From: a virus | Virus genome (UHGV): UHGV-0317024 | Length of the DNA stretch: 18,416 nt | Direction: 5' to 3' (one strand) | Part shown: positions 2-18,244 of the stretch, piece after piece | Numbering within the stretch: position 1 is the first letter of the stretch | Layout of the letters: every line of letters begins with the position of its first letter | The notes under the pieces: generated by a model | The model's database searches: none | The model's input: only the letters and a program-made list of their open reading frames with translations | What the model was told of the DNA's origin: nothing | Made by a program: the position numbers and the translations under genes

Positions 2-382
2 AAATACAACGTAGAATACATCGGTATTGATGCCACCGGCCTCGGTGTCGGCGTGTTCCAGCTCGTGCGCTCGTTCTATCCTGCCGCGCGCGATATCCGC
101 TACACGCCGGAAATGAAAACCGCAATGGTGCTCAAGGCCAAAGACGTTATCCGCCGTGGCTGTCTGGAATATGACGTCAGCGCCACCGACATCACCAGCT
201 CGTTTATGGCTATCCGCAAGACCATGACCAGCAGCGGACGCAGCGCCACGTATGAGGCCAGCCGCAGCGAGGAAGCCAGCCACGCCGACCTCGCCTGGGC
301 GACCATGCACGCCCTGTTAAATGAGCCACTCACCGCCGGTATCAGCACCCCGCTGACATCCACCATTCTGGAGTTTTACTGA
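2..382 (+). CDS. P: Terminase large (ATPase) subunit, C-terminal part; 5' end lies outside the window
   Basis: Reading frame is open from nt 2 (no stop) to TGA at 380-382, so the listed 53..382 ORF is only the tail of a longer gene. Stop overlaps the portal start codon in a TGATG junction. Call rests on position directly upstream of the portal gene and next to cos, as in the P2 P-Q operon; I do not recall the P2 gpP sequence itself. Confidence 0.7.
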   Translation, partial: KYNVEYIGIDATGLGVGVFQLVRSFYPAARDIRYTPEMKTAMVLKAKDVIRRGCLEYDVSATDITSSFMAIRKTMTSSGRSATYEASRSEEASHADLAWATMHALLNEPLTAGISTPLTSTILEFY

Positions 383-1416
383 TGAGCAAGAAAAAAGGGA
401 AAACACAGCAACCTGCGGCAAAAAAAATGACCGCCAGCGCCCCGAAAATGGAGGCATTCACCTTTGGTGAACCGGTACCGGTACTCGACCGCCGTGACAT
501 TCTGGATTACGTCGAGTGCATCAGTAACGGCAGATGGTATGAGCCACCGGTCAGCTTTACCGGTCTGGCAAAAAGCCTGCGTGCTGCCGTACATCACAGC
601 TCACCGATTTACGTCAAACGTAATATTCTGGCTTCAACGTTTATTCCGCACCCGTGGCTTTCCCAGCAGGATTTCAGCCGCTTTGTGCTGGATTTTCTGG
701 TGTTCGGTAATGCGTTTCTGGAAAAGCGTTACAGCACCACCGGTAAGGTCATCAGACTGGAAACCTCACCGGCAAAATATACCCGCCGTGGCGTGGAGGA
801 GGATGTTTACTGGTGGGTGCCGTCCTTCAACGAGCCGACAGCCTTCGCGCCCGGCTCCGTGTTTCACCTGCTGGAGCCGGATATTAATCAGGAGCTGTAC
901 GGCCTGCCGGAATATCTCAGCGCCCTTAATTCTGCCTGGCTGAATGAGTCGGCCACGCTGTTCCGCCGCAAGTATTACGAAAACGGCGCTCATGCCGGAT
1001 ATATCATGTACGTCACCGATGCCGTGCAGGATCGCAACGATATCGAAATGCTTCGCGAAAACATGGTCAAGTCGAAAGGCCGCAACAACTTTAAAAATCT
1101 GTTTCTCTATGCCCCGCAGGGGAAAGCCGACGGCATTAAAATTATCCCGCTCAGTGAAGTGGCAACGAAGGACGATTTTTTTAATATCAAAAAAGCCAGC
1201 GCCGCTGACCTGCTGGACGCGCACCGCATCCCCTTTCAGCTGATGGGTGGCAAGCCGGAAAACGTCGGGTCGCTGGGCGATATTGAGAAAGTGGCAAAGG
1301 TCTTTGTCCGCAATGAGCTTATCCCGCTACAGGACAGGATCCGCGAGATAAACGACTGGCTCGGTCAGGAGGTCATCCGCTTTAAAAACTACTCACTGGA
1401 CACTGACAACGGCTGA
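382..1416 (+). CDS. Q: Capsid portal protein (gpQ-like), 344 aa
   Basis: 344-aa ORF, same length as P2 gpQ; coupled to the upstream gene by ATG overlapping its stop; ends about 170 bp before the cos site, as in P2. Confidence 0.85.
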   Translation: MSKKKGKTQQPAAKKMTASAPKMEAFTFGEPVPVLDRRDILDYVECISNGRWYEPPVSFTGLAKSLRAAVHHSSPIYVKRNILASTFIPHPWLSQQDFSRFVLDFLVFGNAFLEKRYSTTGKVIRLETSPAKYTRRGVEEDVYWWVPSFNEPTAFAPGSVFHLLEPDINQELYGLPEYLSALNSAWLNESATLFRRKYYENGAHAGYIMYVTDAVQDRNDIEMLRENMVKSKGRNNFKNLFLYAPQGKADGIKIIPLSEVATKDDFFNIKKASAADLLDAHRIPFQLMGGKPENVGSLGDIEKVAKVFVRNELIPLQDRIREINDWLGQEVIRFKNYSLDTDNG

Positions 1417-1421
1417 ACATC

Positions 1422-1444
1422 GCCGCCTGCGGGCGGCTTTTTTA
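1422..1444 (+). terminator. Rho-independent terminator of the P-Q packaging operon
   Basis: Perfect 6-bp GC stem GCCGCC(1422-1427)/GGCGGC(1432-1437) with TGCG loop, followed by T-run 1438-1444, 6 nt after the Q stop codon. Confidence 0.7.
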
Positions 1445-1585
1445 CATCCCGTCATCACGCCCTCACACGCTCACCACCGCACAAAACAGCCCGCAGGCAA
1501 ACCAACGCCTCAACGGACAGACTAAGCGCCGTCACGACGCGCTGAGACGCTGAAAAAATAAAATCAGCACCACCGCCAGCGCGCA

Positions 1586-1604
1586 GTGCTTTCCCCGCCT
1601 CGCC
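1586..1604. other. cos site, 19-nt cohesive end of P2 type
   Basis: Plus strand GTGCTTTCCCCGCCTCGCC is the exact reverse complement of the P2 cohesive end GGCGAGGCGGGGAAAGCAC as I recall it; it sits between Q and the replication side, as in P2. Confidence 0.8.
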
Positions 1605-1718
1605 CGCCCGCTTCATGGGGCGGTTTTAATGCAGTTGCATAGATACTATGGATCCGCACCAGTCCTGACCGCACGCAGCCTGAACGGACATCCCCGACGC
1701 ATGCAAAAACATTCACTT

Positions 1719-1730
1719 GTTGCATGCAAC
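1719..1730. promoter_or_regulatory. Perfect 12-bp palindrome GTTGCATGCAAC upstream of the first cargo gene; candidate operator
   Basis: Perfect dyad read from sequence; a further GCATGCA copy at 1700-1706; lies about 110 bp upstream of the 1843 start codon in an AT-rich leader. Confidence 0.25.
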
Positions 1731-1842
1731 GGCTTATTTAATGACAAATCAACTTAAATTTACAAAATCCACAGGTATGGATACTTTGCGAACATGATAG
1801 GCTTACGAGAATTATCGAGCCTATTTTTGACCGGAGCAATGT

Positions 1843-2784
1843 ATGCAAGGTAAAGTTGACGAACAGCAATCCAATGATATTGAAGCTGAGTTTGGATACT
1901 ATCCAGTAGAAGTTAACGTTGAAACTGATGATTTTTCTTTACTTACTTTACCCGGTCTGGCGGAAAAAACAAATCTTATAAACAATCACAGAAATGTTAT
2001 TAACGGTTGGATATACCCAGGAAACCAAGAAGTATATAACCTCAATGGAGGCATATCCACAATGCCTTTTAGCCAACGAGTATTTGGCTTACCCAAAACA
2101 CACTCACTAAAATTAAAAAATACATCTTCACTAGAAACTCTCAATTTTGCTGTGTGGTGTCTGTCTTTTTTCAAAGGGATAAGATTAACAACTACTGATG
2201 CCGGTTTTTTAGACGCAACCCCAATAAAACCCAGCAAATTAACTGACTTTATTCTGGTCAAGTGCTCTGAAAAAGAGGTTATAGAATTAGCACTCAAATA
2301 CATGTCTAGCGAGACAAAAACCAAACACGCACCAATAAATATAGCAGCAATAGTGCATGCACTATTTTTATCCCAAAACCCACAATACCTTAGCTTCGAA
2401 AAATTCCAGTATCTTTACATGGCACTGGATAGTTGCTTTGCTTTAACATGGGCAGAAAAGAACAAGTGTACAGAAAAGACTCTAAATCACTCCAGGCGCT
2501 TGAAGTGGATCTGCAAAACTTATGGAATACCACGACCATCATGGGTTACAGGCAAAAAAAACATTACAAACATCCGCAATGAAAACTTTCATGAAGCTAT
2601 GTTTCATGGTCAACCACTTGGCTTTACCACTATTAACAATTATCAATATGGAGATGACATATTACAACAAATGCAGGCTTTAATTTGCCGATTACTCGTT
2701 GCGATTCTTGGTGTTAACGCCCCCGATTACATCACATCGAACGTGAACTCTCGTGAATATCATTCACTAACATTAAAAATATAA
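1843..2784 (+). CDS. Hypothetical protein, 313 aa, AT-rich cargo gene; function unknown (weak HEPN-like Rx4H motif at residues 245-250)
   Basis: Long ORF with SD GGAG (1833-1836) 6 nt before ATG. Codon usage is strongly AT-biased compared with flanking phage genes. No Walker or other clear catalytic motif recognised. R245-N-E-N-F-H250 fits Rx4H but that alone is not diagnostic. Confidence 0.6.
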   Translation: MQGKVDEQQSNDIEAEFGYYPVEVNVETDDFSLLTLPGLAEKTNLINNHRNVINGWIYPGNQEVYNLNGGISTMPFSQRVFGLPKTHSLKLKNTSSLETLNFAVWCLSFFKGIRLTTTDAGFLDATPIKPSKLTDFILVKCSEKEVIELALKYMSSETKTKHAPINIAAIVHALFLSQNPQYLSFEKFQYLYMALDSCFALTWAEKNKCTEKTLNHSRRLKWICKTYGIPRPSWVTGKKNITNIRNENFHEAMFHGQPLGFTTINNYQYGDDILQQMQALICRLLVAILGVNAPDYITSNVNSREYHSLTLKI

Positions 2785-2799
2785 AACGACTAAAAATAC

Positions 2800-2825
2800 T
2801 CTCCAGTAACAATAAGTACTGGAGA
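2800..2825. terminator. Hairpin between convergent cargo genes; possible bidirectional terminator
   Basis: 9-bp perfect stem TCTCCAGTA(2800-2808)/TACTGGAGA(2817-2825) with 8-nt loop, between the stop of the 313-aa gene (2784) and the stop of the minus-strand 199-aa gene (2867). The flanking T-tracts are weak. Confidence 0.4.
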
Positions 2826-2866
2826 TGTATTATCACTAAAACCAATAAAAAATCACAACTAATGCT

Positions 2867-3466
2867 TTACTTAGATAGTTTGTCTTTAATTATATTCAGA
2901 ACACCAATTATTAATTCACTGATTGGCGTGGCCAACTCAATAGTATTAGATGTCGACTTTGTTCTAAAGTCTTTATCTGTCGGGTGTTGAAATGCTGATT
3001 TAAGAAGAGTCAAAAGCAAAGTTAAACCCACACCAAGGATGAATGCAACAATAGCTATTAGAGAACTGGCCGATAACCAATCGGTGGATAAACCAGAAAT
3101 AGATTTTCTAACTTTATTAGTGTCTGAAGATGGTGTTATCCTCTCATCAGCCATCTTCGGATCCGAAGATAAAGCAGAACATTTTTCTGCTGAAACACAA
3201 GTTTGTGTATCTACTTTTTGTGTTATCGCTGCGGCAATACTGCTTTTCGCTTCCAGCAAGCCATTTCCAACAGCCAAAGCAAAGTTAAGCCCCTGCCATA
3301 GAAATGTACAAGCAAAACAAAGCACAACGGCAGAGAGCACTAATCGCATACTTCTACGCTCTATACCATCCCGTCTATCTCGCCTTATAAGGATATCAGG
3401 ATCTAAATCGCCCTTAGGAGTGGTTCCTTGCTCTGGGGACTGTCCAGATAAATCAATATCAGCCAT
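2867..3466 (-). CDS. Predicted membrane protein with two transmembrane helices, 199 aa; function unknown
   Basis: Two hydrophobic segments (about residues 40-67 and 130-155) separated by a Ser/Thr-rich hydrophilic loop; charged N-terminal 39 residues. AT-rich. Lies downstream of and co-oriented with the ImmA-like gene. No strong SD at the first ATG. Confidence 0.55.
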   Translation of the reverse strand: MADIDLSGQSPEQGTTPKGDLDPDILIRRDRRDGIERRSMRLVLSAVVLCFACTFLWQGLNFALAVGNGLLEAKSSIAAAITQKVDTQTCVSAEKCSALSSDPKMADERITPSSDTNKVRKSISGLSTDWLSASSLIAIVAFILGVGLTLLLTLLKSAFQHPTDKDFRTKSTSNTIELATPISELIIGVLNIIKDKLSK

Positions 3467-3505
3467 AAAAAAATCACCCTTACATGTACAAACGTAAAGG
3501 TGATT
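3467..3505 (-). terminator. Hairpin plus U-tract immediately upstream of the 2-TM gene start; candidate attenuator or terminator
   Basis: On the minus strand an ~11-bp stem (one G-U pair) with a 12-nt loop is followed by seven U (plus-strand A-run 3467-3473), directly abutting the ATG at 3466. Confidence 0.45.
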
Positions 3506-3532
3506 TTAAACAGGTTAAAAGTTAAAGGCTAA

Positions 3533-4018
3533 TTAATAAGCCATTCCTAAGCTCTTTAAGCGCCAATGCATAGCGGCTTCTGATACATTAAAGATGCTTG
3601 CTAATCTCAAAGTGCTATCAATACCTTCTCTGGATACCAATTGACGTATAGCAGACTCAGGCATTAACAACTCAGCAGCAAACTTGTTTGCTTCAACCTC
3701 ACGGTAATCACGAGCACCTGTTGAATAATTCCCGACATTATCCCGATGGTACTCTCCGTCCTGGGTATGCCCCAGCACATGATGACCTAACTCGTGTGCA
3801 ACAGTAAAACGTTGACGATTAGAATGTTCACTAGAATCAAAATAAATCCTATGGACACCCTTTTTGATGACAGCCAGACCGCTTAACCCATCGTTGTTAT
3901 AAGCCGATTCCTCAAGTGCTTCAACACGAGCACCCCACGCTTTAGCAAGCTTAAACGGATCGACAGGTAGTCGGCGATCCCAATAGCGGTCAAGCAGTTT
4001 TTTAGCTGCATAGCTCAT
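3533..4018 (-). CDS. ImmA/IrrE-family zinc metallopeptidase-like protein (HEXXH), 161 aa
   Basis: HELGH motif at residues 75-79 (nt 3782-3796) in the context FTVAHELGHHVLGH, with downstream EVEANKFAAELLMPE typical of the ImmA/IrrE (DUF955) fold. Strong SD AGGAGG 5 nt upstream of the ATG. AT-rich cargo. Confidence 0.8.
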   Translation of the reverse strand: MSYAAKKLLDRYWDRRLPVDPFKLAKAWGARVEALEESAYNNDGLSGLAVIKKGVHRIYFDSSEHSNRQRFTVAHELGHHVLGHTQDGEYHRDNVGNYSTGARDYREVEANKFAAELLMPESAIRQLVSREGIDSTLRLASIFNVSEAAMHWRLKSLGMAY

Positions 4019-4660
4019 GGTTGCCTCCTACGTTAAAAAAGTTAAGTATGCACAGCCATATCACAGTTGTTATTTTATGTCAAGGCTGTTTTTCAGCCAT
4101 TACTATAACACTAATCCACGTTTTCCCATAACATTTTCGACATCATATATGCATTCAGTTCTGCATATAGAGCTTATCTTTGCTGATAACACGAGATGAA
4201 TACGCGCAACCAGCCCACGATTTATAAAAAACCTTATAAATCAGAATATTGAGTTAAAAAAACACTAACTACTTGCGCAGCGAGTTGTTAAACCTCAGCG
4301 ATACTAAAAGAAAATTTCAGAGTCACCGAAGTTTCCACAGAAAACGCAACTTAATGATTTTATTGGAATTTATGTCGCTATTTTTAATTACTTGTTTAAA
4401 TCCGCCATATTGAAACTGTGCATTTCTAGCCACTCACAACTTTAAAAAATTTACATTGCTTTCAAGACCTTATCATCCGTAGTCTCTGCTTTTTACTTTG
4501 AGCTATATCAAAAAAAGCTCAAACATCCTTGATGCAAAACCAGTATTACACAACATAAAATGCAACCAGAAACAACGACATACTATATGTTGTGTTGTTC
4601 AGGTCCTCTGTTCGGTGATATGCCAGATCACTTTGCGTTTAAACAGAGCATTATTTCAGG

Positions 4661-4674
4661 GCAAGACTTCGCTC
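4661..4674 (+). repeat. Direct repeat copy 1, GCAAGACTTCGCTC
   Basis: Exact 14-nt match to 4925-4938; each copy is followed within 3-25 nt by AGTCACTC. Confidence 0.6.
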
Positions 4675-4739
4675 AATAGTCACTCCGCCTTAGAAGCGCA
4701 TATATCGGCGGAAATTGCCCTCTGCTTACAGGAGGCGAT

Positions 4740-4853
4740 ATGAAGAAGTGCTATTACTGCATTCTCGTTCTGGCCCTCTTTGGCTATCCATATGGTAGTC
4801 CGAGTGGTTTGTCAGTAAACGTCAGTAATATCCATGTAAGTATTTTTCTTTAG
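4740..4853 (+). CDS. Candidate small hydrophobic peptide, 37 aa (MKKCYYCILVLALFGYPYGSPSGLSVNVSNIHVSIFL)
   Basis: Not in the supplied ORF track. Canonical SD AGGAGG (4730-4735) 4 nt before ATG 4740; stop TAG 4851-4853; followed 18 nt later by a terminator; hydrophobic Cys/Tyr-rich N-terminus. Confidence 0.3.
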   Translation: MKKCYYCILVLALFGYPYGSPSGLSVNVSNIHVSIFL

Positions 4854-4861
4854 TATGCTTC

Positions 4862-4895
4862 AAACAAAAAAACCACCTGCCAGGGTGGTTTTTTT
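4862..4895. terminator. Bidirectional rho-independent terminator
   Basis: Stem CCACCT(4873-4878)/GGGTGG(4883-4888, one G-U pair), flanked by A-run 4862-4872 and T-run 4889-4895. Can terminate the small plus-strand ORF and minus-strand transcription leaving gene A. Confidence 0.65.
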
Positions 4896-4924
4896 GCGCC
4901 CGTCATCAATCCGATGAAAGACTA

Positions 4925-4938
4925 GCAAGACTTCGCTC
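4925..4938 (+). repeat. Direct repeat copy 2, GCAAGACTTCGCTC
   Basis: Exact 14-nt match to 4661-4674. Confidence 0.6.
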
Positions 4939-5155
4939 GAGATGAATTATGCTTCGACATAAAGTCACTCGCAATGGTTTTATTAACCGAAATAGATGCT
5001 CTTTTATGACTCGAATCAAATAGCTGCCTTCAATTACATGCTAACGATTCAATACAATTTAGCCTTCTGATTCAACACGCTATTGCTCCTCATCTACCTT
5101 AGAGGTGTTTCGCATAATCCATTCAAAGACATATAAAATCACGCTGTATTTTTAC

Positions 5156-7432
5156 TCAAATGGGTAACAAAAATCCCGGCCAATCATCAGCGACCTGATA
5201 AGTGAAAGGTTTCCCGTCATAATTTACGGTCGCGCCACGCGCCAGCGCCTCAAGCTCCCATCGTTGCGGCCTGATACCGTTCTGAGCGAGATCAACGCGG
5301 ATACGGGTAATTTGCAATCGTTCCGACCGGGTCAGTCTGGCCGATGGTGCAATTTCATGCGGTTTTAACGGGCTTCCGTTTCTTTGCTGACGGTTTGGCG
5401 TTCTCCGGTCGTGTTTTAATGCGCCCCTGAGCGCCCTCACGACCTCCGGGTCATTCCATTCGATAACATCGTCATCAACCAGATTAAGCACTGCTGCGGC
5501 GTGCTCAGAAGGTGTGGGAGCCGGTAACGAAGTATCACCACCGGTGAGCTTTCCACAGTTATTGACAGGACTCCGAGGCGCGGCGATGCCGCTTTTTAAA
5601 GTCAAAGGCTGAACGACCGGAACTTTCGGCACAATGCGCCAGTCCGTCGTTCTGGTGATATGAATATGACGCGCGCCGAGATGCGGCGCGTAAATGCCGA
5701 CCACTCTCTCGACCTCTTCCTCGTACTCGTTAACGTCATCCGACAGACTACGGGCGACCCTGACAGTCTGACAATCGCGCGGGACATTTGCCCCACCCTG
5801 CGCGCTGATATACAGCGCAAAATCACCACTGTCTGCGGCGGCGCGTGCAGCCTCGACGCGCTCGTCAAACTCATCAGCAATGCTGACGCCGCGAGGCAAT
5901 TTGCGTAGTTCACGGTAAGCCCCCATTGTCGGCAGGCCAACCGTTTTAAATTGCGGAATGCGCCACGTTGACGCCCATGCGGTAACAGCCGCTGCAGTGT
6001 CTTTCAGCGGCCTGCCGGTGTCGTTATCGAGCTGACCATCCAGTGCATAGCCGTCGATGTTTTTTGAAATGTATTTCGCGATATATCCCGCAGCACCGCC
6101 CCGGTTAAGGTGTTTTGCCTGAAAACGGTTTCGCGCGGCTCCTCTTTCGTCGCCATCCTCTTTGAGCGCATAGCGACGCATGATTTCGATAATCTGGTTA
6201 CGCTGGCGTGGATGACAAAAAAGCATCATATGCCAGTGCGGCGTTCCGTCGTGGTGTGGCTCGACGACTCGCAAACCGTAGACCTGTAAATCATTATCCT
6301 TGAATGCCGTGCGCATCAGGCTCCAGATACGGCAGAGATAACGCTGCGCATCCTTTGGATTAAATGCCTCATCGTTCCAGCCGTGATTAAGCTGAACGGT
6401 TTTACTTTCGCCTTTTCCGACCTGACGTGTCGGGTGATACTTTGACGGCGCGGTCAGCGTGATAAACATCCCCACATCACCCTCTGCGGCGGCGTAACGC
6501 TCAATACCGGCAATGGTGTTCATCAGCTCCATCCGGCGAATTTCAGGATTAGAAATACTGCCCATCACCTTACTGATAAGGTCGATGCGCTCGCCGGTTT
6601 CCCTGTTTTCAAGGTCACACGATTTAAGAAATTCCAGATTTGCCTGGCGGCGCGCACGCACATCACGAATGGCGTGTTTACTGGCATAAGGAGAACGGTC
6701 TTTATTGACCTCCCCGACAGCTATCAGTAACGCCTCATGCCAGCGCATACGCTGGCCTTTAAGCTGATGAGTCCACCACTCATCGTTAAACAGGCGGGCA
6801 ATGGCAGAATATGCCTGCCTCGTGGTCATCTGTCCTTTACGGTATTTTTTCCAGTAGAGCGGGGAAATATTGAAAGCACGTGCAGCGCCAGCAACATGAC
6901 CATACAGGTGAGCCTGCGCCTCATCCGTAAACAGCGATTCTTTTTCACCATGCGCATCCACCCATGCATCGCAGAGTTCCTCATACATCATGAAAAGCTG
7001 CGATGAGATACGGGCGGCAAACTTTTTCAGCTCCTTGTCATTCATTCCCGGCAGGCGCGCATAGTGGTCACGCTCTGCCAGAAACAGCAACGACGCGTCG
7101 GTGTTCATTTCATGGCGCTGATTCACACGCTCAATGCGCGGCCATAAACGACGCTGAAAAGTAGATGTGAGGAAATAAAACCCGTGCACCGGGCTTTTAT
7201 TGCGCCGGATGTAGTCATAGCGTGAAGTAAACAGCGAGCGCAAAAAGTAAGGCAGGCGGTTAATCGTGGATAAAACACCTTGCACCTGACGCATCTCGTC
7301 ACGTGTAAGAGGTCTTTCGCGCCCGACAGCCTCGCGTGGCGCGTTCCATGCATAAGCACCGGTAAACGCCTTACCGGTGCCTGCGGTAAATGCTGACGGA
7401 GGGACAAAACGCCCGGAGGCTTTAACGGCCAT
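5156..7432 (-). CDS. A: Rolling-circle replication initiation endonuclease (gpA-like)
   Basis: The 772-aa ORF begins at a TTG at 7474; I place the start at the ATG at 7432 (MAVKASGRFVPP...), which matches the P2 gpA N-terminus as I recall it and gives 758 aa against 761 in P2. Position downstream of the early operon is as in P2. Confidence 0.85.
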   Translation of the reverse strand: MAVKASGRFVPPSAFTAGTGKAFTGAYAWNAPREAVGRERPLTRDEMRQVQGVLSTINRLPYFLRSLFTSRYDYIRRNKSPVHGFYFLTSTFQRRLWPRIERVNQRHEMNTDASLLFLAERDHYARLPGMNDKELKKFAARISSQLFMMYEELCDAWVDAHGEKESLFTDEAQAHLYGHVAGAARAFNISPLYWKKYRKGQMTTRQAYSAIARLFNDEWWTHQLKGQRMRWHEALLIAVGEVNKDRSPYASKHAIRDVRARRQANLEFLKSCDLENRETGERIDLISKVMGSISNPEIRRMELMNTIAGIERYAAAEGDVGMFITLTAPSKYHPTRQVGKGESKTVQLNHGWNDEAFNPKDAQRYLCRIWSLMRTAFKDNDLQVYGLRVVEPHHDGTPHWHMMLFCHPRQRNQIIEIMRRYALKEDGDERGAARNRFQAKHLNRGGAAGYIAKYISKNIDGYALDGQLDNDTGRPLKDTAAAVTAWASTWRIPQFKTVGLPTMGAYRELRKLPRGVSIADEFDERVEAARAAADSGDFALYISAQGGANVPRDCQTVRVARSLSDDVNEYEEEVERVVGIYAPHLGARHIHITRTTDWRIVPKVPVVQPLTLKSGIAAPRSPVNNCGKLTGGDTSLPAPTPSEHAAAVLNLVDDDVIEWNDPEVVRALRGALKHDRRTPNRQQRNGSPLKPHEIAPSARLTRSERLQITRIRVDLAQNGIRPQRWELEALARGATVNYDGKPFTYQVADDWPGFLLPI

Positions 7433-7697
7433 ATGAGCCAAAAGCCTCTGAACAACGCTTGCTGAGTTGCTCAACCTGCGCGTTTAAATCAGCAAAAGAT
7501 TTTGCGCTTCCGGTCAGAATATCGTGATGCATCAGGCCGGAAACGAGCTGGCCTAATTTCGGGTAATAACCAACCACCGCCAGCCATTCCTGACCGGCGT
7601 TTTTACCGCTTTCCGCTCTCTTTTTCTCGTGGAGAATAAACTGAAAGCTGTCACTGGTAACGACATAACGTTCGCCAATTTCAATACGAATACTCAT
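7422..7697 (-). CDS. Early-operon hypothetical protein, 91 aa (P2 orf83 position)
   Basis: ORF with stop overlapping the A start and start overlapping the upstream gene stop (ATGA coupling); synteny with the P2 early operon. Confidence 0.6.
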   Translation of the reverse strand: MSIRIEIGERYVVTSDSFQFILHEKKRAESGKNAGQEWLAVVGYYPKLGQLVSGLMHHDILTGSAKSFADLNAQVEQLSKRCSEAFGSYGR

Positions 7698-9586: not shown

Positions 9587-9880
9587 ATGAAATTAAGCGA
9601 AAAGATTAAGGCCTTGCGTGAGGCTGAAGGGCTAAGCCAATCAAAATTCTGTGAAATCATAGAGTTACCGCTAAGCACACTTAAAAAATATGAAGGAGGA
9701 AACTTTGAACCCGGTGGCACAGCTTTGCTAAAAATCACTATGCATCCCACATTCCAAAAATATGCTCTATGGCTTATGACAGATAAAACCGCGCCGGACG
9801 CAGGACAAATCGCACCGGCTCTCGCGCACATTGGGCCAGAGTCAACAGAGTCCAACCACTCCGCGAAAAGGATTGGCTAA
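9587..9880 (+). CDS. C: Immunity repressor C-like (HTH), 97 aa
   Basis: Small HTH protein divergent from cox; the motif GQIAPALAH matches the P2 C repressor C-terminal region as recalled; followed by int as in P2. Confidence 0.8.
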   Translation: MKLSEKIKALREAEGLSQSKFCEIIELPLSTLKKYEGGNFEPGGTALLKITMHPTFQKYALWLMTDKTAPDAGQIAPALAHIGPESTESNHSAKRIG

Positions 9881-17866: not shown

Positions 17867-18244
17867 CTATTTGTCCCGGTTGGCTAAGGGATGACACAAT
17901 TTATTCTTTGTCGCTGATGAGGGGAATTTTTTATAGAGCGTGGACAGGCCAATATCAAAAATCAGCGCCACGCGTTGACGTGATTCACCCGCAGCCAGCA
18001 ACCGTCCTGCCTGTTCCCACTCACTCGCGGTGAGCTTCGGACGTCTGCCACCAATACGACCTTTAGCTCTGGCCGCTTCCAGTCCGGCGCGAGTCCGCTC
18101 GACAATGAGTTCTCGTTCCATTTCAGCCAGGGCACCCATCACATGAAAGAAAAAACGTCCCATCGGCGTGCTGGTATCAATGGCATCCGTCAGGCTGCGA
18201 ACAACGTTTATGAAAATGCAGAGATAACGGGCAAGTGGCATCAT
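17867..18244 (-). pseudogene. N-terminally truncated serine DNA invertase (Gin/Hin/Pin family) remnant; catalytic domain start absent
   Basis: Residues from [36 protein letters not shown]... to the C-terminal HTH align with about residues 88-190 of Gin/Hin-type invertases. The first ~12 residues of the ORF have no invertase similarity and the N-terminal ~85 residues, including the catalytic Ser, are missing. Confidence 0.65.

Follow-up and report, generated by a model that had tools for sequence, protein, structure and literature searches.

Zinc peptidases of the M78 (ImmA/IrrE) type belong to several described two-gene systems, and we compared these with a gene pair in the UHGV virus genome UHGV-0317024, a stretch of 18,416 nucleotides (nt; 18.4 kb, below called the window) which is an E. 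coli P2-like prophage. The pair encodes a stand-alone M78 peptidase of 161 amino acids (aa) and, downstream on the same strand, a membrane protein of 199 aa with two transmembrane (TM) segments, and an RNA hairpin lies between the two genes. Our reading, to which we assign a probability of about 0.5, is that both genes form a self-contained accessory ('moron') module of the prophage, a RosmerTA-like system without helix-turn-helix (HTH) domain, in which the protease would restrain the co-encoded membrane effector.

The repressor-protease pairs CapH/CapP, ImmR/ImmA and DdrO/IrrE share the M78 catalytic fold and the zinc site with the peptidase of the window, and they are also located on mobile elements. 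CapP is a protease with a GAF domain which is activated by single-stranded DNA and cuts the HTH repressor CapH between F82 and R83 (Lau et al. 2022, 10.1101/2022.04.27.489752). Whereas these pairs have an adjacent XRE-type HTH protein as substrate, the window peptidase has none. CapP and IrrE carry a C-terminal GAF domain and many CapP proteins an internal cysteine switch, but the window peptidase has neither, and unlike the regulated operons of the repressor-protease pairs the module comprises only one downstream membrane protein gene.

RosmerTA (Millman 2022, 10.1101/2022.05.11.491447; PMC10440598) is, like the module, a two-gene unit of phages and defense islands, and it likewise pairs a protein with an ImmA/M78 peptidase domain with a variable partner without known domains. 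In RosmerTA the ImmA protease domain, node D25 of NetFlax, serves as a hub domain of antitoxins and is 'often' accompanied by an N-terminal HTH (PMC10440598). In the RosmerTA of Gordonia phage Kita, RmrT(D5)/RmrA, a protease antitoxin is combined with a membrane-localized, depolarizing toxin (Ernits 2023, PMC10440598), and this system defends against two BASEL myoviruses only (PMC10440598). For canonical RosmerTA, rmrA deletions were unobtainable, and transposon sequencing (Tn-seq) found rmrA essential in three Pectobacteriaceae. The module differs from RosmerTA by a rare, different membrane protein family, by the fixed order with the peptidase first and by the hairpin between the genes, which resembles a terminator and a lock of the ribosome binding site (RBS). 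Toxicity and defense are inferences in the case of the module.

The pairing itself is not new, since it was catalogued and tested once by Rousset et al. 2022 (PMC9122126). The exact peptidase (WP_000119270) is listed in their table of the P2 hotspot together with one or two hypothetical proteins, and a 'Peptidase + TM' allele from E. coli TA280 was cloned as pFR104 with its native promoter. This cassette represents the same locus and the same two families but a different allele, with 88% identity to the window peptidase and 54% to the membrane protein. In the annotation of pFR104 the membrane protein starts at an internal Met and has one TM segment instead of the two in the window. The text of a CRISPR interference study which included strain TA280 and compared the strains' conserved genes mentions neither the peptidase nor the cassette. 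An earlier reading of the window from its sequence alone (the sequence-only reading) had presented the pairing as a rarity; in view of the listed and tested cassette, and of Kita RosmerTA as a validated precedent for an ImmA protease with a membrane toxin, this was overstated. What we add is how widely and strictly the two genes are paired, the lack of an HTH across the subfamily, the conserved terminator/anti-Shine-Dalgarno hairpin and a conserved tail motif; hairpin, wide distribution and tail motif were not described by Rousset for the pFR104 cassette.

Three further systems also combine a membrane effector with a second protein. The satellite and prophage exclusion systems gop-beta-cII of P4 and RexAB of lambda are, like the module, cargo of P2/P4-type hotspots or immunity regions, and in them a cytosolic partner controls a toxic or effector protein with several TM segments; Gop has two TM helices and is toxic without beta. 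Both are unrelated to the module in sequence, their partners are not proteases, and an intergenic terminator or RBS lock has not been described for them. In bacterial gasdermin systems a protease is encoded beside a membrane pore-former and proteolysis controls the pore. Their folds are unrelated to those of the module, and the proteases next to gasdermins have sensor domains; for the module, a cut in the membrane protein as in gasdermins is hypothetical.

The peptidase and its membrane partner

The elements of the gene pair and of its upstream region are the following.

3533-4018, minus strand: gene of the stand-alone M78 (ImmA/IrrE-type) zinc metallopeptidase, 161 aa (open reading frame (ORF), Pfam PF06114, AlphaFold2 model)
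2867-3466, minus strand: gene of the membrane protein with two TM segments, 199 aa (ORF, family alignment, hydropathy, AlphaFold2 helices)
4024-4029, minus strand: Shine-Dalgarno (SD) sequence AGGAGG (consensus) of the peptidase gene (read from the sequence)
4055-4083, minus strand: putative promoter-like site ahead of the peptidase gene, TTGACA-17 nt-TATGGC (read from the sequence)

The product of the first gene matches Pfam Peptidase_M78 (PF06114) with an E value of 3.8e-21 (75.6 bits, cutoff 22) and PHROG 87 'metallo-protease'. Its best PADLOC match is capP (1.1e-30), which covers only profile positions 8-153 of 242; the profiles of RmrA, the RosmerTA antitoxin, match more weakly (6e-17 to 5e-7) and exclusively with their C-terminal peptidase part (positions ~141-304 of models with 357-400 positions). 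The residues H75, E76 and H79 of the HExxH motif and the downstream E107, the third zinc ligand, are invariant across 50 aligned homologues. The AlphaFold2 model (mean predicted local distance difference test score, pLDDT, 87; predicted template modeling score, pTM, 0.83) comprises the catalytic domain and three C-terminal HTH-like helices. Its top match in a Foldseek search of the Protein Data Bank (PDB) is CapP (7t5t, E 3e-6, TM score 0.60), followed by IrrE/PprI (7e-6 to 8e-5), and the likeness to CapP and IrrE is also found at the sequence level. On the basis of this model we are confident that the protein has the M78 fold, and the invariant zinc site together with the confident fold predicts that it is catalytically competent. 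The earlier assignment as an ImmA/IrrE-like metallopeptidase is thus confirmed, including the expectation that the HExxH region folds as such in structure prediction. The same reading had placed 161 aa at the short end of the family; this does not hold, because most members of the stand-alone subfamily have 150-170 aa and the length is therefore normal.

Profile coverage and the AlphaFold2 model revealed neither a GAF domain nor an N-terminal HTH in these 161 aa, and a switch of the CapP type is absent because the sequence contains no cysteine. In the loop after HExxH (residues 84-104), residues 96-101 are the sole low-confidence part of the model. The same loop carries the invariant residues H84 and R92, and R92 aligns pairwise with the Cys-switch residue of CapP; this segment may be a substrate-gating loop.

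The RBS of the peptidase gene is predicted to be strong and accessible: the duplex of its SD with the anti-SD sequence has a predicted energy of -10.2 kcal/mol, and the 50 nt around the start codon fold at merely -8.5 kcal/mol. The RBS context aacgtaggaggcaaccatg recurs in a Serratia locus (L006). The putative promoter is flanked by the inverted repeat CAGCC...GGCTG; a consensus promoter scan made no call at this site because the -10 hexamer is weak.

The membrane protein has hydrophobic segments at residues ~38-66 and ~126-160, with an Arg-rich stretch just before the first, and in the AlphaFold2 model residues 23-88, 118-159 and 175-198 are helical and the N-tail and the loop are disordered. 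The predicted layout consists of a cytosolic disordered N-tail, TM1, a periplasmic loop, TM2 and a cytosolic C-terminal amphipathic helix. The protein belongs to PHROG 8096, a family of unknown function. It has no match in Pfam, PADLOC or NCBIfam (PADLOC holds no model for this partner), and PDB sequence search, PDB profile search and Foldseek returned nothing meaningful. In the N-tail the window protein carries the conserved motif IDLSG. Across the family this tail is a P/Q-rich low-complexity linker of variable length which retains, close to its start, the short motif DLSG/FDYSA/DLSDG. No variation is seen in TM2, AFILGVGLTLLLTLLK, over the range from Acinetobacter to E. coli, and the segment SAF[QRH]HPTD after TM2 and the helix ELATP[LI]SELI...K[FL]SK are strongly conserved among enterobacterial members. 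The periplasmic loop is hypervariable with a C-x6-C pair kept in enterobacterial members, which is consistent with an N-in/C-in topology. We take the upstream ATG and not the internal Met as the true start because indels keep the frame and the N-tail motif is conserved. Some database records begin at an internal Met within TM1 and lack the N-tail and half of TM1.

The membrane family is rare: 53 homologues were found in a collection of 5.8 billion proteins, mostly from Enterobacterales with additional ones from Vibrio and Acinetobacter, and a profile search gave 57 among 1.84 billion cluster representatives. In species-representative genomes a scan with the family alignment yielded chance pattern matches only, and an exact 48-nt degenerate TM2 pattern gave zero hits. 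Because of this absence the genomic contexts were drawn from scans of viral and metagenome sequences and from exact-protein look-ups.

Synteny was traced both ways, from the membrane protein and from the peptidase. At all of the approximately 30 loci with enough flanking sequence, which cover about ten genera and several prophage types, an M78 gene of the same subfamily (154-170 aa) directly precedes the membrane protein gene in the same orientation. These loci come from E. coli, Salmonella and further hosts of P2-type phages, from Serratia, Klebsiella, Rahnella, Vibrio and Acinetobacter, and from Aeromonas, Pseudomonas, Cupriavidus, Alcaligenes and Desulfovibrio. When the search began with the membrane protein, the contexts in Vibrio harveyi, A. 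baumannii, Serratia, Rahnella and one metagenome had a same-strand M78 gene of 156-164 aa as the immediate upstream neighbor. A degenerate TM2 pattern added 21 loci on viral and metagenome contigs, again with the peptidase directly upstream wherever the sequence sufficed. Starting from the peptidase, homologues with only 42-51% identity (in a lambdoid prophage of P. aeruginosa, a Klebsiella prophage end, a Mu-like prophage of Aeromonas, Cupriavidus, an Alcaligenes prophage and Desulfovibrio) each precede a protein of 130-236 aa with the same architecture. These distant partners share an N-tail motif (hydrophobic-D-[LFY]-S-[GAD]), two TM helices and a C-terminal amphipathic helix with a Lys-rich end. 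The closer homologues among them, those of Klebsiella, Aeromonas and P. aeruginosa, also have a second helix of the G-x-GLTL type, and in the short-loop members (Pseudomonas, Cupriavidus, Desulfovibrio) the periplasmic part is nearly absent. Apart from the pair, the loci have unrelated surroundings, and the placements are moron positions of prophages or defense-island positions. Judged by this gene order, the peptidase and membrane protein genes are an obligate pair, which supports the proposal of the sequence-only reading that the peptidase is tied to the two-TM protein and not to an XRE repressor.

A classical regulator would be organized differently: the peptidase would cut a distant HTH repressor, such as the P2 C protein or an XRE protein of the host, with the membrane gene as an unrelated passenger. 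CapP and IrrE, the best profile and fold matches, do cleave XRE-type repressors, and the prophage encodes an XRE-type protein, the C repressor at 9587-9880, which is with a distance of ~5.5 kb the nearest XRE-type gene. However, the two-TM gene is the only constant neighbor of the peptidase in about ten genera and several types of mobile elements. An adjacent HTH gene was found neither in the window nor in the loci with precomputed Pfam annotation; the strand of the pair contains no ORF of at least 40 aa between 4019 and 5155, and the small ORFs tested between the peptidase gene and gene A had no Pfam match. The missing XRE/ImmR neighbor had been recognized correctly before, and a search for an HTH partner elsewhere, which had been proposed at the same time, led to the C repressor. 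The identical peptidase allele co-occurs with two types of P2 C repressors which are mutually only 56% identical; this argues against the prophage repressor as hidden substrate, and we rejected it as a candidate. The copy of P. aeruginosa is located just downstream of a cI-like, self-cleaving S24-type repressor gene, which also speaks against this explanation. We give it hardly any weight.

The two proteins diverge unequally. Among P2-type loci the peptidases are 82-100% identical and the membrane partners just 55-63%, with most differences located in the N-tail and in the periplasmic loop that carries the conserved C-x6-C pair. This pattern, and the location of every copy in prophages, would suit superinfection exclusion, with a non-toxic membrane protein that blocks incoming phage DNA or another envelope process, a loop that confers specificity and a peptidase for maturation or turnover. 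On the other hand, the best conserved parts are TM2 and the cytosolic C-terminal helix and not the periplasmic face, the members of Pseudomonas, Cupriavidus and Desulfovibrio manage nearly without a periplasmic part, and the tested pFR104 allele showed no validated protection. To our knowledge, known exclusion proteins need no dedicated cytosolic zinc protease. Altogether we consider superinfection exclusion improbable.

The hairpin between the two genes

The 66-nt spacer between the genes and the region behind the membrane protein gene contain the following elements.

3470-3507, minus strand: RNA hairpin with 16 base pairs (bp) and a 6-nt loop (minimum free energy (MFE) and centroid structures)
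3467-3473, minus strand: U7 tract directly after the stem, abutting the ATG at 3466 (read from the sequence)
3473-3479, minus strand: SD sequence GGGUGAU of the membrane protein gene, inside the 3' arm of the hairpin (predicted 16S duplex)
2800-2825, both strands: terminator-like hairpin of 9 bp that separates the membrane protein gene from a converging 313-aa ORF, probably the end of the two-gene unit (terminator scan)

The spacer alone folds with a free energy of -18.4 kcal/mol. For a context of 106 nt the folding energy is -28.3 kcal/mol (z = -4.45), and all 200 shuffled sequences were less stable. Four residues of the U7 tract pair with an upstream A-tract. The region 3467-3507 shows the layout of an intrinsic terminator, a stable stem-loop followed at once by a U-tract. 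The sequence-only reading had located a strong hairpin with U7 at 3467-3505, directly at the start of the membrane protein, which was essentially right.

The same architecture, consisting of an A-tract, a stem, a run of T5-T8 and the ATG after 0-4 unpaired nt, was found in eleven versions of different sequence, whose stems have 9-16 contiguous pairs and energies of -11 to -20 kcal/mol. P2 loci of the E. coli/Salmonella type contribute several alleles, and the others come from Serratia, Klebsiella, Rahnella, Aeromonas, Vibrio and two metagenomic lineages; the recurrence in eleven distinct versions indicates that the hairpin is more than chance. This comparison is based on folding of each sequence and on tabulation of the pairs anchored at the stem base; it replaced RNAalifold on a MAFFT alignment of the spacers, which misaligned distant hairpins and gave a weak consensus. 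Compensatory changes were detected at the first level that is not A·U (UA to GC) and at the third (AU to CG). The pairing is kept and the sequence is not, which points to an RNA structure rather than to a protein-binding site.

In all loci with the hairpin the SD of the membrane protein gene (GGUGAU, GGUGG or GAGGG) is located within the 3' arm. The duplex with the 3' end of 16S RNA has a predicted energy of -10.2 kcal/mol in the window and of -6 to -10 kcal/mol in the homologous loci, and in enterobacterial hairpins the 5' arm AUCACC mimics the anti-SD of 16S RNA. With the SD inside the 3' arm the hairpin would act both as a terminator and as a lock of the ribosome binding site. The comparative evidence thus supports a conserved, negative control that the hairpin exerts on expression of the membrane protein, in agreement with the tight control postulated before. 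The term attenuator, used in the same reading, applies loosely to a partial terminator with RBS lock. Regulated attenuation is unsupported: neither the MFE nor the centroid structure of the 106-nt context contains a competing antiterminator fold, and an Rfam scan of 1400-5300 gave sub-threshold matches only, with no leader or riboswitch at gathering score.

Some deposited homologues (P0006, P0009, P0012, P0021, P0023; also L045 2501-2515) open with 'MVIFFM...' or 'MGAFFM...'. These starts are miscalls, translated from the 3' arm of the hairpin and the U-tract, ATGGTGATTTTTTTTATG; the element accounts in this way for several mis-annotated start codons in databases.

Lineages without the hairpin (Acinetobacter, Pseudomonas, Cupriavidus, Alcaligenes, Desulfovibrio) have spacers of 5-30 nt or overlapping genes. 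This tight spacing suggests that coupling of the two genes is universal and that the hairpin is a lineage-specific means of lowering the amount of the second product. It bears also on the possibility that expression is uncoupled, with the hairpin as a plain terminator of a monocistronic peptidase gene and the membrane gene transcribed from a start inside the spacer. In most lineages a -10-like hexamer (TAAAAT, TATAAA, TAGAAT or CATAAA) does precede the stem core, and the TAAAAT of the window overlaps the foot of the stem, so that transcripts from such a start would lose the 5' arm and be translated freely. But the hexamer is accounted for by the pairing of the A-tract with the U-tract, a convincing -35 element is lacking, the promoter scan made no call in the spacer, and the overlapping genes of the hairpin-less lineages imply co-transcription. 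Uncoupled expression therefore appears very improbable to us.

Possible modes of action of the module

In the reading that we favor, the upstream gene would supply a cytosolic M78 zinc peptidase from a strong and freely accessible RBS, and the downstream gene an inner-membrane protein whose two termini face the cytosol and which would be the dangerous or effector component. This effector would probably be oligomeric, permeabilizing or depolarizing and built on the invariant TM2. The partner of the peptidase would be this co-encoded membrane protein instead of an HTH repressor, and its effect an antitoxin-like restraint, exerted by binding and/or cutting of a conserved cytosolic element, either the DLSG-type motif of the N-tail or the region after TM2 with the C-terminal helix. 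Hairpin and U-tract would end most transcripts right before the second start codon, and on read-through transcripts the hairpin would mask the SD sequence, so that the output of the effector would stay far below that of its controller. In function the module would be an HTH-less relative of the RosmerTA-type toxin–antitoxin and abortive-infection systems.

The main rival reverses the direction of control. Here a peptidase that stays silent until a cue from a phage or from damage arrives would clip the cytosolic tail of an inert membrane protein and convert it to a pore, a gasdermin-like suicide for which the hairpin limits leakage. The active site of the peptidase is invariant, its M78 relatives CapP, ImmA and IrrE are signal-activated endopeptidases with a single cleavage site, and the conserved N-tail motif or SAF[QRH]HPTD after TM2 would be candidate cut sites. 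The window peptidase, however, has no GAF sensor domain and no Cys switch to receive such a signal. We prefer the antitoxin-like direction because ImmA-domain proteins tested in two-gene toxin–antitoxin systems acted as antitoxins, because the genes are coupled in the style of such systems, and because the double throttling of the membrane gene suggests that the uncleaved protein is already harmful. The short or overlapping gene spacing of the hairpin-less lineages is typical of toxin–antitoxin pairs. Activation by the peptidase is in our opinion a possible but unlikely alternative.

Several observations weigh against the antitoxin-like reading. The pFR104 allele, assayed with eight coliphages in MG1655, is listed in Table S2B among the 'additional tested systems' and not among the validated defenses (PMC9122126). 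In PD-lambda-2 a fusion of Xre and an M78-containing peptidase is the toxic partner itself. RmrA of RosmerTA has ~360-400 aa with a usual N-terminal XRE HTH, in contrast to the 161 aa without HTH of the window peptidase. The characterized M78 regulators are signal-activated and cut once, which fits an activator role at least equally. The AlphaFold2 model of the membrane protein is of moderate confidence (mean pLDDT 64) and has no structural match. The stem of the hairpin is AU-rich with 3-5 G-C pairs only, which leaves the efficiency of the predicted terminator in doubt, and a simple terminator scan made no call at this position; the scan missed the hairpin because four U residues were counted as part of the stem.

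More generally, it is conceivable that this M78 lineage switched its substrate class and, in place of soluble HTH repressors, acts on a cytosolic tail that belongs to a dedicated inner-membrane protein. Prophages across Proteobacteria would then carry a protease-gated membrane effector which is armed or disarmed by one cut and dosed by a terminator/anti-SD element. We regard this extension as doubtful and put it forward tentatively.

Prophage setting and significance of the module

Around the gene pair the window contains the following elements.

382-1416, plus strand: portal gene (terminase end, then cos-side terminators)
1843-5155: variable stretch with low GC content (0.37-0.44 versus 0.53 in the flanking phage genes)
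1843-2784, plus strand: orphan ORF of 313 aa converging on the pair (GC 0.37; PHROG 5937, unknown function)
4740-4853, plus strand: small ORF of 37 aa, MKKCYYCILVLALFGYPYGSPSGLSVNVSNIHVSIFL, with a strong AGGAGG RBS
~4861-4897: bidirectional terminator-like hairpin (A7-stem-T7) after the 37-aa ORF
5156-7474, minus strand: replication gene A (Pfam Phage_GPA, 2.8e-124)
9587-9880, plus strand: gene of the XRE-type P2 C repressor

Beyond gene A the gene order continues with Cox, the XRE-type C repressor, integrase and tail genes. The pair is sited in the variable P2 cargo hotspot between gene A and cos/portal, a hotspot described by Rousset et al. 2022 (PMC9122126). Of 5,426 complete E. coli genomes, 46 carry an identical cargo region of 3.8 kb; flanked there by the portal gene and the gene of the replication endonuclease, it is annotated as two hypothetical proteins and an 'ImmA/IrrE family metallo-endopeptidase'. 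An ORF of 125 aa at 17867-18244 (minus strand), past the tail sheath gene, resembles by eye the C-terminal part of a serine recombinase/invertase.

The cassette with the 100% identical peptidase was found in two immunity types with C repressors of 56% identity (L010, L012 and L027 versus L011, L019, L020 and L023), and other alleles of the module reside in P2-like phages with merely 30-37% identity in gene A. This distribution across immunity types and divergent gene A sequences indicates horizontal exchange among occupants of the hotspot. In Serratia (L006/L007, 8463-10246), ~1.8 kb downstream of the module, a gene for a 223-aa protein is followed by one for a 371-aa protein with HTH_3 and Peptidase_M78 domains, a RosmerTA-like arrangement; HTH-less and HTH-bearing protease systems thus share one island.

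The sequence-only reading had named the two-TM gene as the only adjacent gene; in some loci, including the window, the 313-aa ORF converges on the pair as a third gene. This ORF has no match in Pfam, PADLOC, NCBIfam or the PDB. An allele with 49% identity occupies the same convergent position beside another allele of the module (L015, L028), and the ORF is present in some P2-type loci only and in none of the non-P2 loci. Missing from most contexts, it was rejected as a core part and may be separate single-gene cargo or an optional third component.

The 1.1 kb between the peptidase gene and gene A (4019-5155) contain no annotated gene. About 760 nt of this spacer, especially 4391-5150, are all that ~100 further E. 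coli genomes (L038) carry in P2 hotspots without other cargo; the spacer is therefore conserved and independent of the module, and it was rejected as a core part as well. The 37-aa ORF within it is conserved with 92-100% in all loci carrying the spacer, two copies of the motif GAGCGAAGTCTTGC are located nearby, and only a sub-threshold RNAI-like Rfam match overlaps this region. The ORF could encode a small hydrophobic peptide or represent a type I toxin-like element.

The module turns up repeatedly as cargo in the P2-like prophages of E. coli, Salmonella and Klebsiella. If our model is right, the hairpin is a natural example of a toxin:antitoxin ratio set at the RNA level. It would also mean that the ImmA/IrrE protease scaffold can directly control a membrane effector without a DNA-binding partner, beyond its role as a repressor-cleaving switch. 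The idea of RosmerTA would be extended in this way, and with 161 and 199 aa the pair would provide a small system for the question of how protease 'antitoxins' neutralize toxins.

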